Of a DNA stretch of 64,000 nt, positions 15,341 to 48,055 are shown one piece after another (positions within the stretch are counted from its first letter, which is position 1; each line of letters opens with the position of its first letter). A model generated the notes under the pieces. It did no database searches, was not told the DNA's origin, and saw nothing but the letters and a program-made list of their open reading frames with translations. A program made the position numbers and the translations under genes. Source of the stretch: Octopus vulgaris (Eukaryota); assembly GCA_951406725.2 (NCBI GenBank), contig OX597824.1:48360001-48424000 (forward strand), read 5' to 3'.

Positions 15341-15418
<78 letters not shown>

Positions 15419-16262
15419 GCATATATGGGTACAGGACATCAGAAAAACGTTGAACACAATGAGAAACGAAAGCATAAAAACAAAATCATAGAAACGAGCT
15501 TTTTTTCAAACAACGAAAAAAACAGAGTACAAGACATACAACACAAGGGATATTCCCCTTCTTCAGTTATCCCCGTTTCATCTACTCCGCATTCGAAGGT
15601 AAAAGCAAGACGCGACTTCGTTGAAACTGTCCTTTCCACAAAGCAAATTAAATAAAATTTGAGATTTTTTGCGGAGGGTAAAAGTGGTAACAAGAACAGG
15701 ACAATAAGAACAAAATAAGAAGTAAAAACAATAAAAAAGTTAAAACAGTAAAAGACAGAACAATAAGAATAAAACAGCAAAAATAAACGATGAGGGTTGT
15801 TAAGCCAAGACGATGGAAAAATTATTCTGAACGCTTAAGGAGACAGCTTATAAAAGAGACAGGATAAGCGGGTCTGGTTTTGGTGAAGATAGCAGTCGGA
15901 AAGATGGCTTTCCTCTGATCACGTGTTAGTGATGAGAGAGTCGAGGAGGAGGGGAGTAAGAGAGAGAGAGAGAGAGAGAGGGAACGGTGAAGGGGGAGGA
16001 GAAGAATAGGGAAGGGTAGGAGAGAAAACCAGAAAGAATGAAGAACAAGAGGGGGAGAGAGATAGACAGAGAAGAAACAGTAAAGGGAAACGAGTGCGCA
16101 TCATAATTATTACGATAAAACTTACTTGGAAAAGGTTGCAATATATACATACATATATGTAATTACTTACATATATATGTATATATACATGCATATATGG
16201 GTACAGGACATAAAAAAAAAGTTGAACACAATGAGAAACGAAAACATAAAAACAAAACCATA
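15235..16262 (-). mobile_element. non-coding interspersed repeat with terminal direct repeat (PLE pLTR/retrozyme-like)
   Basis: 15238-15490 is repeated at 16116-16262; a second family member lies at 34075-34960. Confidence 0.7.
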
Positions 16263-16268
16263 TATACA

Positions 16269-16369: not shown

Positions 16370-16427
<58 letters not shown>

Positions 16428-16575
16428 TATAAAAGCAATTAAGATTCAAGTGAGTTCTGTTGAATTCACATGAATGCGGTACTTAACTTGGATGCACCAG
16501 AAATCTATATGGTGTTAACCATAAGATAATGCGGGGTGATTATAAATAAGAAAAAGCAACAAGAATGGATCAATA

Positions 16576-16664
16576 TTTCGGTACAATTGTTTCGTACGAA
16601 GACAGCTTTATTAAGGCTGCAGATATTGCAGTAAATATAAGTGACCCGTACTCATCAGCCGAAA
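16576..16664 (-). ncRNA. type I hammerhead ribozyme, intact core
   Basis: UUUCGG-CUGAUGA-GUACG..CGUAC-GAAA-C AAUU G-UA-CCGAAA on the minus strand. Confidence 0.85.
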
Positions 16665-17203
16665 AAACATCTGAGTTCTCCAAACATCTAAGGGGGTGAT
16701 GTTACACTCCTGAAACATAGAGTAGCCCCATAGTTCTATAAAAATAAGAATTAGGTAACAAATGGACTTCTGAAAGTTCTTTTAGTGTTGCACAGTCATA
16801 TAACGGGTTTTAAAAAAGTATTTTAAAAAACCTCTTAGTTTTGCAGAAAATGAAAATAAAATTGAAAATGTAAATCCATCCATATTGAAGAAAGTTTGAA
16901 TTCTGGAGATATGGACTAATTATGGATAAATGCATATTCTGTGAATATGATACCTCTCCTCATATCTCCAGAATTCAAGCTTTCTTCAATATGGATGGAT
17001 TTACATTTTCAATTTCATTTTCATTTTCTGGAAAACTAAGAGGTTTTTAAAAATATTTTTTAAAAACCCGTTATATGACTGTGCAACACTAAAAGAACTT
17101 TCAGAAGTCCATTTGTTACCTAATTCTTATTTTTATAGAACTATCACCAATGTTTCAGGAATGTAACATCACCCCCTTAGATGTTTGGAGAACTCAGATG
17201 TTT

Positions 17204-17292
17204 TTTCGGCTGATGAGTACGGGTCACTTATATTTACTGCAATATTTGCAGCCTTAATAAAGCTGTCTTCGTACGAAACAATTGTACCGAAA
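17204..17292 (+). ncRNA. type I hammerhead ribozyme, intact core
   Basis: Stem I UUUCGG/CCGAAA, CUGAUGA, stem II GUACG/CGUAC, GAAA, palindromic stem III CAAUUG; GUA cleavage triplet ends at 17286. Confidence 0.88.
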
Positions 17293-17625
17293 TATTGATC
17301 CATTCTTGTTGCTTTTTTCTTATGTATATATATATATATATATATATATTATGCAACGGGCTAAAGGTTATTACGGTTAAGCGGTAGATCCGCACCATCA
17401 GACATGACATTCGAGCATCAACTAGAAAGTGAACTGCAACTTTAGAGTAGCCCCATCGTCGACCTTGCTCATTGTACTTTTGTACACTATTTGGTATCTG
17501 GCGTTCTGTTCAGAGAAGTGCGAATCCCTGTGGCGATGTAGTGAATGTAGCAGTAGTAGGTGTAAGTAACAGAGAGTCAGAGGTGGGGAGAGAGCATATT
17601 TGTGGACATAAAAAGAGAGATAAGC

Positions 17626-17670: not shown

Positions 17671-17747
17671 ATGCAGCCTTCTTAACCATCCACGAATGCA
17701 CTGCTTCTAAACAAACTAATATAGGAACATACGTATATTGGCAAAAC

Positions 17748-17990
17748 CAGTGGTTCTCACCCGGGGTCCATATGGTCCTTGGGGGTCCTTACAAGATCTT
17801 GTTAAAATTTATCTGCAATAAATTGGTTATACTTCTACAAATATTTTAACAATTTTGTTTATACCCTTCCCAATAATATCTAATTATAAAAAATATAATA
17901 GGACCTTTTAAACATCGAATGGCTATGAGAGTCTACCTGAGTAAAATAGGAATCGAAGGAGTCCAGAAGTAAAAAATAGTTGAGCCAAAT
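17748..17990 (+). mobile_element. hAT-type MITE
   Basis: Starts cagtggttctcaccggggtcc; ends with decayed ..ggagtccagaagtaaaaaatagttgagcc. Confidence 0.6.
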
Positions 17991-34074: not shown

Positions 34075-34960
34075 ATATGTACATACCTACATATATATGT
34101 ATATATACATGCATATATGGGTACAGCACATAAAAAAAACGTGAAGAATATGAGAAACGAGAACATAAAAAACAAAAACATAGAAAACGAACTTCTTTTC
34201 GAACAACGAAAAAAACAAAGAGAGAAACGAGACAGGCAAAATAAAGAACATTCCTTTCATCAGTTCTCCCTTGTTTTATCTATTCCACGTTTCGAAGGTA
34301 GGGACAAGACGCGACTTCGTTAAAACAGTTCTTCCCGCAAAGCAAGTTATATAAAATTTGGGATTTTATGCGAAGGGTGAAAGTGGTAACGAAAACAGGA
34401 CAGTGAGAACGAAACAGTAAAAACAAATGGTGAGGTGTTAAGCCAAGCCGATGTGAAGTGGTGAACGCTGGAAAAACGAGCTTTGAGAGGAGACAGGTAA
34501 AAGCACGTCTTGTCTTTAGGAAGGAAGTGGAAGGCAGAGAGATGAATGGCCGTCGGTCACGTGTGAGCAACGAGAGAGTCAAGGAGGAAGAGTGAGTGAG
34601 AGCGAGAGAGAGAGAGAGAGAGAGGGAACGGTGAAGGGGAGAAGAGAAGAATAGGGAAAGGGTGGGAGAGAAAAACTGAAAGGAAGAAGAATGAGAGATT
34701 TGGATAGATAGAAAGAATAGAGATAGGATAAGAGTACGTATCTTAATTAGTAAGATAAAACTTACTTGGAAATGGATGCGTGACGTTCGATCACATAATA
34801 ATATAAATAATAATAATAATAGTAATATAAATAATATATAAATATATGCATATATATACATACATATAAGTACATATCTGCATATATATGTATATATACA
34901 TGCATATATGGGTACAGGGCATTAAAAAAAATGAGAAACGAGAACATAAAAAACAAAAAT
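34075..34960 (-). mobile_element. second copy of the 15.2-16.3 kb direct-repeat element
   Basis: Collinear with 15400-16262; tatatgggtacag..atgagaaacgagaacataaaaaacaaaa occurs at both ends. Confidence 0.75.
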
Positions 34961-43822: not shown

Positions 43823-45097
43823 GAGGGTGCCCCAAAATTAAGGCAACCAACTCTTTTCAATTTTGCCAAAGCAAAATATTGTTATATTCCAGGTCTTAAC
43901 GTTGCCATGCAATGGTAAGGGAATCACAATTATGACACTACCACATTTATTCGTTATTGCTACCTCTACTTCGAATCACAGCCTAAGGTCTAGGTGCGAA
44001 TGCTTCACACGCGGCATGCAGCCGTTCTTGCGGAATCGAAGACATTCCTGGCGCAGTTTTTGCCTTCAGAACGTCAACAGAAGCATGAGGAGTGCTGGAG
44101 ATCCTCGTCTCCAAAATGAACCAAAGAGAAAACTTCAACGGGCTTAGATCGGGGCTTTTTGAGGGCCATACATCCTTGCCTATGAACAACGGAATTTTTT
44201 TTTAGTCCAGTGCTGTGTCTGTTTGGAGCTGTGGTGCCGAGTCCTGTTGGAAGCTCCAAGATGCGCCTTGAAAGTGCTCGTTTGCCTATGAAAACAGTTC
44301 AGCATCCAAAATGTCGCTAATGTATCGCTGGATATTAACTTTAATACCCGAGGGCACAAAAACAAGGATAGACTTGCTAGTGGCTGCCACAGCCGCCCAA
44401 ACTAGCTGCAGATTTTGAGGTCGATTTACGAGTCTATCCTCGACGGAGGCAGGTACATCCCAAAGTCTGTCATTCTGGTGGTTTACTGTTTGTTCGATGC
44501 CAAATTTCTTTTCATCAGTGAACACCAGGTTCAGCAGCGTGCTTTCAGCAATCTGACGCAGGATAAGACGACTTCTATCTAGTTTCATGGTCTTATAAAC
44601 TTGCGTGAGCTCATGACGGTGGATCATCTTGAAGGGGTGGATCCTGAGATTCTCTTTCGTCACACAATACATCGATGTTCGGCTTATTTTGCTGTGACAG
44701 CCAGTTTTCTGACGGACTGACAAGGATTTCGCCGTATTTTTCTCAGGTACTTTTGATAAGCTAATGGGTCCGCACACTTCTTTTTCGGTCAAGTTCAGGT
44801 CGATCAGTGGTGGAACAAGTGTCTTGAAATTTCTTGACAATTTTCCAGACTGTTATTCGGTTAATATTAAGCTTTTTAGCTATAGTTTTATTTCTTTCGC
44901 CTCCTTTGTGGAGGGCTATGATTGTGTTTCAGTCTAAAGCCATTATCTAATTTATAAATCTAAATTTATTTAGTCTGAAACAAAGAGAAAACACACTAAA
45001 GCTTTTATAATGATGTATAAATTTCATATATGTTATTACATTTATTGATAGTTATTAAAACCCGAAACTTCGGTTGCCTTAATTCCAGGACATCCTA
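43823..45097 (-). mobile_element. Tc1/mariner-superfamily transposon, maT/DD37D-like, near full length, inactive
   Basis: 26 bp TIRs (gagggtgccccaaaattaaggcaacc / ggttgccttaattccaggacatccta) with TA flanks; VFTDEKKF, VWAAV, FQQDSAP, WPSKSPDLSPLK; stops and frameshifts present. Confidence 0.93.
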
Positions 45098-47235: not shown

Positions 47236-48055
47236 GCAGAGTCCTGAAGAGGGACAAACAGAGCACAAACACAAAGACACATATACATCTAGGCTGGAGT
47301 AATGTCTTGATATGTGCGTGAAATGGATTAATGTAATCGGGGTTGCACAGTGTCACCTGCCTCACTCTCTCGTCCCTTTCTATCTAATTCCATTGGCAGG
47401 ACGAAGTCAAGACAGGTCGGGATGCAGTGGATGGCCGCAGTGTTCTTCATGTCTCACAGTGTCCTGTTCATGCTCCTCAACGCTTGGTGGTTCACTCTCT
47501 TGTTCGTTAAACCAATATGGTGGTTTCCTCCGCACAGTCCGCCGTGTCCAGTCTTCTCGCGCATAGGTTCGTGTCCACCGCTTCCTAGCCCCGTTGCTGA
47601 GACGTCGTCGGCGTCGGCGCCGTCTGCGCTTCGCTCTGGGCAGCCCTGATCGAAGGGACACCGAACCACGCTGGGCGAAAAGAGCTCGAGGATTTGAGAG
47701 ACGTCAGCTATCCTCACCATCGTTTAGCCGGCCTGGTGAAGCCGTTGCCCAGAGCGTGGCTGCAGTTGCATACAGACAGCTTCAAAGACCACATGTGAGA
47801 GCTGGATTTCAGGTGAAGCCCAAAGGGGGCGAAATGCCACATGTTCTCCCGTCAGATGTACTACCCCACTCCATGTATCTATGTGTTTGTGCAGACACCC
47901 CCATGCATATACACATAGATGCACACACATATTTGTATGTGTTTGTATGTGTGTGTATGCGTTCGTATGTATTTACTATAGACCCGGTTGACCGAAGCCT
48001 TGTCAGTTGATATGGTAGACGGGAAGTGAAATAGGCCCGTTCTATGCATATATAA

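Follow-up and report, generated by a model that had tools for sequence, protein, structure and literature searches.

The window analysed here, 64,000 nucleotides of the Octopus vulgaris genome (GCA_951406725.2, contig OX597824.1, positions 48,360,001 to 48,424,000 of the forward strand), is AT-rich and crowded with microsatellites; it is part of contig C11 in the numbering used here, one of 227 contigs that total 2.8 Gb. It holds an inverted repeat whose arms, at 16546-16913 (minus strand) and 16961-17323 (plus strand), align over about 365 nt. The near-identity of the arms, already pointed out in the first-pass annotation, was borne out: 354 columns contain 9 substitutions (2.5%), and the only other differences are one base in a T run and an 11-for-5-nt replacement at 16719-16729. 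The interval given earlier, 16546-17323, had the arms right and was too small in extent, missing a tail of about 116 nt on the left arm. The features are as follows.

16370-16431: left half of the (TA)n target microsatellite (TRF, (TA)31; TA occurs on both sides in 31 of 33 head-to-head pairs)
16430-16545, minus strand: tail of the left arm, about 116 nt, ending in the long (L-type) 3′ end; present in many other copies
16546-16913, minus strand: left arm, a 5′-truncated pLTR copy starting about 355 nt before the short end (alignment to natural copies)
16576-16664, minus strand: type I hammerhead, left copy, with core start at 16658 and predicted cut after 16582 (hammerhead scan)
16719-16729: private 11-nt patch that replaces 5 nt of element sequence and matches 17444-17454 in the right flank
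16910-16913: head-to-head junction, a 4-nt overlap (TATG) common to the 5′ ends of both arms (mapping on natural copies)
16910-17323, plus strand: right arm, a 5′-truncated pLTR copy starting about 406 nt before the short end and having the short (S-type) 3′ end (mapping on natural copies)
16914-16960, plus strand: 47-nt apparent loop, which is extra 5′ pLTR sequence of the right arm only (mapping on natural copies)
17204-17292, plus strand: type I hammerhead, right copy, with predicted cut after 17286 (hammerhead scan, fold)
17321-17349: right half of the (TA)n target microsatellite (TRF)
17443-17456, plus strand: probable source of the templated patch, within single-copy sequence of the flank (sequence match; flat low depth in DNA runs)

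In the coordinates of natural copies, counted from the short end, the right arm covers everything from about -406 up to the short end itself, and the left arm extends from about -355 to the long end at +117. Both outer arm ends run into (TA)n, inside which a target duplication is unreadable at this locus. In full-length copies the tail is 5′ UTR, the ATG lying 172-174 nt past the short end in all four copies examined.

The patch at 16719-16729 is identical to 17444-17454, on the same strand and 725 nt downstream, within a 14-nt exact match that includes 1-2 nt at its borders. At the loci compared it is present only in the three that are the window's own site. Within 1 kb on either side, an 11-nt match would arise by chance with probability 2e-4 and a 14-nt match with probability 7e-6, and the patch is likely a templated repair insertion that arose after integration.

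Inspection by eye spotted no host exon near the insertion, and the window's open reading frames of at least 120 aa are mostly microsatellite read-throughs. Other features were seen in the window. Just right of the insertion, at 17743-17900, is a fragment of another high-copy repeat with very high contig depth in four runs. Copies of another dispersed repeat lie at 15369-15495 and 16141-16267, and 15.2-16.3 kb contains a short direct repeat (88%, spacing 772); dispersed-repeat copies also occupy 34150-34900, and 34.1-34.9 kb resembles 15.2-16.3 kb. The stretch 47400-47850 is GC-richer, has short open frames on both strands, and is possibly an exon or a fragment of another mobile element. A 188-codon frame at 44286-44852 (minus strand) has a sequence suggestive of a Tc1/mariner transposase fragment.

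The parent Penelope-like family

The arm is a high-copy repeat. It yielded 1983 first-look candidates and the tail query 2673, neither figure being a copy number; among the best 40 that were scored for the arm, full-length matches are 90-97% identical. Longer close copies extend 5′ into fragments of reverse transcriptase (RT) and GIY-YIG nuclease. Full-length members, found through a DNA search with the RT region and through wider stretches, have a tandem layout of pLTR, tail, RT/GIY-YIG ORF and second pLTR (L111, L112, L113, L116, L118). The origin from a Penelope-like element (PLE) with inverted pLTRs, as first suggested, is supported by these ORF-bearing members and by the pLTR mapping. L113 and L117 have reading frames that stay open for about 1090 codons and encode 1072 aa when read from the first Met. 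Both belong to a sister subfamily; its pLTR is about 83% identical to that of the window family, and the nuclease is 76% identical (L113 compared with the longer copy L046).

In the 1072-aa ORF of L113, YRDD is found at residue 355 and the nuclease at 950-1070. Section 11 of Craig et al. (2021, PMC8557442) gives as diagnostics of the Hydra clade an RWK motif, DKT, CxCx5C, the absence of CCHH, and CxxC and CxH around the conserved E and N; every motif of that section was found in relatives of the window family. The N-terminal motif is RWR at 37 in L113 and RWK in L111, L112, L118 and L123; the change from DKG to DKT is seen as ADKT at 123 in L113, whose linker has CxCx5C as CNCRIKSKC at 932. 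The L113 nuclease has no CCHH and a single Cys between GIY and YIG, with CQLC at 1029 and CIH at its end. As in other EN+ PLEs, the hammerhead sits in the pLTR. There is also an optional 3′ tail on one insertion end, of about 115 nt compared with the 30-40 bp published for it (PMC8557442), and insertion is into (TA)n, a Hydra trait, with TA runs flanking both sides in 31 of 33 pairs. On sequence grounds, namely this motif list and the (TA)n target, the window family is a Hydra-clade PLE.

Hydra elements as described in PMC8557442 are generally under 3 kb, whereas the ORF alone takes 3.2 kb here, owing to an Asn-rich stretch (27% N over residues 481-930) that lies between RT and nuclease and is partly internally repeated (L113:2000-5175, L117, L031, L046). 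Fragments gave weak Pfam matches to RVT_1 (E 0.011) and GIY-YIG (E 2e-4), and the Pfam search of two full-length ORFs returned no family at E ≤ 0.1. Homologues of the ORF comprise 27 mostly unnamed proteins at 35-42% identity and, as the only named one, an Octopus sinensis protein with 66% identity over 42% of the searched region.

Among the Hydra-clade C-terminal EN+ PLEs, the family resembles above all Penelope-13_HM, of which a 5′-truncated inverted copy with the same hammerhead on both strands is given in the supplement of PMC8557442; the likeness covers the RWK-type motif, DKT, CxCx5C, lack of CCHH, (TA)n target and a hammerhead near the 3′ end. Besides its longer tail, the window family has a 48-nt insert in ribozyme stem II that sets it apart from the Hydra elements in that account. 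Its ribozyme sequence is unlike the one listed there for Hydra-1_Obim of Octopus bimaculoides, and the window family is therefore another family, of a kind already known. The Adineta vaga Penelope described in PMC3846280 has, like the window family, an inverted pLTR overlapping a direct one, a tail on one inverted pLTR, and Asn-rich ORF inserts. Its tail measures 31 bp and extends over the beginning of the ORF, in contrast to the 5′ UTR tail found here, beyond which the ATG lies by about 55 nt.

Placement in the Neptune clade had been guessed from the linker cysteines and was rejected, CCHH being absent and DKT/RWK present. We also rejected an 806-codon frame in L040 as the ORF of the window family, since it belongs to another PLE family (45-50% identical in RT). 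This Hydra-like frame (L040:3987-6404) begins directly where the long end of one of the window family's head-to-head pairs stops, and no TA run separates them; the arrangement is either an insertion into another PLE or a chimera. A younger sister subfamily (L125-L154; 1042 first-look candidates) has copies 98-100% identical to each other, open full-length ORFs, and GAUC in place of AAUU as the loop of ribozyme helix III.

Head-to-head pairs across the genome

We collected 80 loci through the arm query, the tail query and one fetch, and these collapse to 55 distinct sites. The sites are best-scoring copies and not a census; 19 of the 55 come from the tail query only. They comprise 33 head-to-head pairs, 20 arms that are single within the DNA examined and may have partners farther out, one tail-to-tail pair, and one tandem. 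The pairs are nearly uniform in their 3′ ends: 31 of the 33 join a long-ended to a short-ended arm, one joins a short end to a near-long one (ending at +97), one has two long ends with a third piece between, and none has two short ends. At the 36 sites not selected by the tail, 17 of 19 pairs are long with short (p = 3.6e-4 against 50%), and the unpaired copies are 8 short and 7 long. The sister subfamily gave 30 loci at 27 sites, with 10 head-to-head joins; eight are long with short, and in the other two, partly seen, a short arm has a partner that passes the short end up to the locus edge. The layout in the window is the usual footprint of the family. At least 43 such pairs (33 and 10) were seen, and they probably number hundreds in all.

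Of 24 pairs with at least 100 shared columns, one tail-to-tail row having been left out, 23 have partner arms that diverge less from one another than from the remaining copies (median 2.3% against 5.0%). The description of the window's repeat as young holds in a relative sense only: its arms are just 2.5% apart, yet 13 of the 24 pairs measured, the window's counted among the 24, are closer, and pairs of the sister subfamily are 99-100% identical. Junctions vary from site to site; of 25 close ones, 17 overlap by 1-16 nt, one is blunt, and seven have 7-24 extra nt. Five of the 17 overlaps are of one base and may be due to chance. For the 32 pairs of the long-with-short type, the long arm reaches further 5′ in 20, the short arm in 9 (including the window's), and the two are equal in 3. 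The long arm of L036 consists of tail only and has nothing in common with its partner arm, and L009 has a 30-nt tail stub.

Two further arrangements were seen among these copies. The tail-to-tail pair (L032:1352-1702, G000:C11:58353351-58353701) is made of short-ended arms 0.9% apart, with about 20 nt of TA between them, and is the only case at the 55 sites. Seven arms (in L043, L074, L063, L070, L058, L059 and L031) start at -110 to -121, near the 5′ edge of stem I.

An assembly artefact, either a fold-back chimera or a collapsed repeat, is an extremely improbable source of the inversion in the window. Inverted structures of PLEs do trouble short-read assemblies, according to PMC8557442, and among the contigs listed none bridges the junction or either element boundary; however, short-read contigs break in such high-copy repeats anyway. 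The arms themselves argue against an artefact, differing by nine substitutions and the private patch and having unlike 3′ ends that match the two natural ends of the family. Thirty-two further sites show this layout with breakpoints of their own, and the 11 nt that the left arm took from the single-copy right flank tie arm and flank together in real DNA. When the single-copy flank was compared with a sequencing run that carries the label of another organism, 4 of about 1015 bases differed. Set against the 2.5% divergence of the arms, and provided that these were identical at first, this suggests an insertion several times as old as the split between the two genomes.

The ribozymes and the read-through hairpin

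A mechanical scan for type I hammerheads on both strands of the whole 64-kb window gave exactly two matches, one in each arm and pointing outward, in agreement with the first-pass annotation. The CUGAUGA core begins at 17210 (plus) and 16658 (minus), and the GUA cleavage triplet ends at 17286 (plus) and 16582 (minus). Both predicted ribozymes have the features of the type, namely the CUGANGA, GAAA and UH core elements, stems I and II, and helix III. In the right copy, stem I is formed by 17204-09 with 17287-92, CUGAUGA occupies 17210-16, and stem II (17217-21 with 17270-74) carries the 48-nt insert as a hairpin; GAAA follows at 17275-78, then helix III, a C17279-G17284 pair closing a palindromic AAUU loop, and then GUA, its position supporting the earlier prediction of a cut after 17286 on the plus strand. 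The two copies had been said to differ by one base, and this is T at 17246 against C at 16622 (sense strand), in the distal stem II hairpin and outside the core. The active fold when constrained has -17.7 kcal/mol, compared with -19.0 for the free minimum. Rfam over the window reported no hammerhead at the gathering score or at E ≤ 5, probably because of the 48-nt insert in stem II; it gave only below-threshold miRNA and snoRNA matches, which were rejected as caused by the hairpin.

Across 13 copies from several subfamilies the ribozyme stems are 96.9% paired, compared with 25-48% when slid. For these 13 related sequences, 2 of 500 shuffles reached the covariation score, and 30 of 500 had at least as many pairs with a change on each side. 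Of 183 motif matches, 135 have AATT as the helix III loop and 41 have GATC, each of them a palindrome; the loci overlap, so that the counts are not independent. A helix III with one pair and a palindrome is of the dimer-dependent type (PMC4209133, PMC7229834), and here the palindrome has been preserved although two of its bases changed, which is what cleavage as a dimer requires. The maintenance of this palindrome and of stem pairing across copies indicates that selection acted in source elements, where the ribozyme was probably kept functional as a dimer; this does not extend to the window locus. The ribozyme is fully intact in 51 of 73 arms that span it, and both are intact in 11 of 19 head-to-head pairs including the window's, near the 49% expected from 70% intactness per arm; these values are inflated by the sampling of top-scoring copies. 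Intactness at the window locus is the family background.

The layout of two hammerheads head to head is already known in print, from Penelope-13_HM (PMC8557442) and from PLE remnants of Schistosoma, in which two minimal hammerheads lie on opposite strands with 100-700 bp between them (Cervera and de la Pena 2014, PMC4209133). The window pair is like the latter in having its hammerheads on opposite strands, about 540 nt apart, and a weak palindromic helix III that suggests dimer cleavage. It differs in PLE clade and host, and in that its helix III keeps one C-G pair and a tetraloop, like the newt/axolotl type (PMC7229834). Non-LTR retrozymes share with the locus a type I hammerhead, a relationship to PLEs and a lack of coding capacity, and are described as head-to-tail tandem units with same-strand ribozymes that release circles (PMC7229834; bioRxiv 10.64898/2026.07.22.740005). 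This identity was rejected for the window locus, which is head to head with one ribozyme per strand. General context is given in PMC8969392 and the same preprint.

The first-pass annotation had proposed a self-masking bidirectional cassette in which cleavage could depend on folding or A-to-I editing; we weighed it as a cassette with a function for the host, unlocked by an alternative fold or by editing. Its structural premise is supported: RNA from either strand would contain one sense ribozyme and its antisense, and the read-through RNA is predicted to fold into a long hairpin of -584 kcal/mol. Both ribozymes are intact, and once transcribed the hairpin would suit ADAR ideally. PMC5625713 reports that octopus hyper-editing is very high and that loci prone to form long dsRNA are many, and transcription of the locus would likely lead to editing of the hairpin. 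RNA initiated inside an arm would have its ribozyme unmasked, as for any pLTR copy. None of 24 sequencing runs was listed as RNA; in one presumed RNA run, for which contigs only were used, short contigs match the repeat and the other repeat near 17800, and none falls on single-copy flank, a pattern that is neutral as to transcription, editing and cleavage.

The switching itself fared worse. Forcing the ribozyme fold costs 132 (plus) or 129 (minus) kcal/mol relative to the hairpin. When editing of the antisense arm was simulated with edited As as non-pairing, the gap was 115-124 kcal/mol at 10% editing, 97-116 at 25%, 75-87 at 50%, and still 44 at 100%; with inosine modelled as G it stays at 106 kcal/mol or more, both treatments being approximations. 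By geometry, the antisense arm is always transcribed first in read-through RNA, whichever the strand. Editing of the sense arm would hit As of the hammerhead core. Helix III of the dimer type also speaks against the switch, the second ribozyme of the pair lying on the opposite strand. A single minimal PLE ribozyme gave no cleavage in the experiments described in PMC4209133, and the one from anole needed protein to cleave in those of PMC11167929. Double intactness, moreover, is found in ten other sampled pairs. Genomic copies (90 arms) have no sense-strand A>G excess, with 89 A>G against 141 T>C (0.87% and 1.09% per base, p = 0.11), and the family therefore bears no trace of edited templates. 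On these fold energies, editing would not free a working ribozyme. A regulated RNA switch at the locus is not supported, and we consider it very improbable.

Formation of the pairs

The window locus is very probably a non-coding pair of 5′-truncated Hydra-clade PLE ends joined head to head in (TA)n, its hammerheads being passengers of the pLTRs that would be silenced by the hairpin in any read-through RNA. The pair was likely made in one integration event. In the mechanism that we propose, the nuclease of the element would cut both strands of a TA run, and each 3′ end would serve as a primer for copying the element RNA into cDNA, with one start at the short site and the other about 115 nt further 3′. 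Both cDNAs would stop early, anneal by their last 4 bases, and prime each other's second strand. After integration the arms would drift 2.5% apart, and one of them would take the templated repair patch. Within the debris reading, we give such two-ended priming, inferred from genomic footprints only, a little more than an even chance.

Two start sites about 115 nt apart would leave nearly every two-armed insertion with one tailed and one untailed end, as in 31 of the 33 pairs and all 10 of the sister subfamily (two partly seen). Neither arm has to be copied from the other, given that 9 of 32 pairs have a short arm extending further 5′ than its partner and that one long arm is tail only. In full-length copies both 3′ ends sit just 5′ of UA-rich stretches, whose sequence might allow them to base-pair with a TA primer. 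The in vitro experiments of PMC11167929 show a PLE protein that both cuts and extends the two strands and begins synthesis at two internal positions of the RNA, by which the tail is defined; a dimer is predicted for this protein. A stricter form of the model, obligate asymmetric twin priming, has a protein dimer with two RT sites that start at two fixed places of the RNA, about 115 nt apart. No strand difference in start site was seen in the in vitro work of PMC11167929, which counts against a strict coupling of long with short, and we hold the stricter form tentatively, as falling just short of an even call.

In twin priming of L1, both target ends prime reverse transcription and the cDNAs join by microhomology, which gives an inversion made mostly of non-overlapping pieces of one RNA. 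At the window, unlike in L1, both primings would lie near the 3′ end, and hundreds of bases are duplicated as an inverted repeat.

The same PLE debris could instead come from fold-back, through self-priming of the cDNA or an antisense template, the tail being left on one end by endonuclease resolution. Head-to-head junctions are read as self-priming in PMC3846280, and a one-sided tail is ascribed to EN-mediated resolution in PMC8557442. Fold-back fits the junction overlaps, the similarity of partner arms and the further 5′ reach of the long arm in 20 of 32 pairs; the arm similarity could also partly reflect gene conversion within inverted repeats. However, an arm made by plain fold-back would be wholly contained in the arm made before it, and in the window the right arm has 51 more 5′ bases while the left has about 116 more 3′ bases. 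Arms are likewise non-nested in the 9 of 32 pairs to which the window belongs, and the tail-only arm of L036, with nothing shared, and the 30-nt stub of L009 are also contrary to it. The differences of junctions between sites argue against the copying of one pre-existing palindrome. A variant of fold-back with extra template jumps is possible. Overall we regard fold-back as less likely than two-ended priming.

By itself the window locus matters little, being ordinary transposon debris. The origin of the inverted structures and one-sided tails of PLEs is called undefined in PMC8557442, and in the literature searched, a body with few of the subscription papers, we found neither a count of long-with-short pairing nor a twin-priming model for PLEs. 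The near-strict pairing of long with short ends, together with non-nested arms, can be counted and tells two-ended priming apart from fold-back; with its 115-nt spacing, twin priming would be easy to score genome-wide and in vitro. If obligate asymmetric twin priming is true, one mechanism would explain both the inverted pLTR and the one-sided tail of PLEs. A family that leaves near-perfect hairpins of 100-700 bp may also plausibly contribute to the dsRNA and editing load of the octopus transcriptome.
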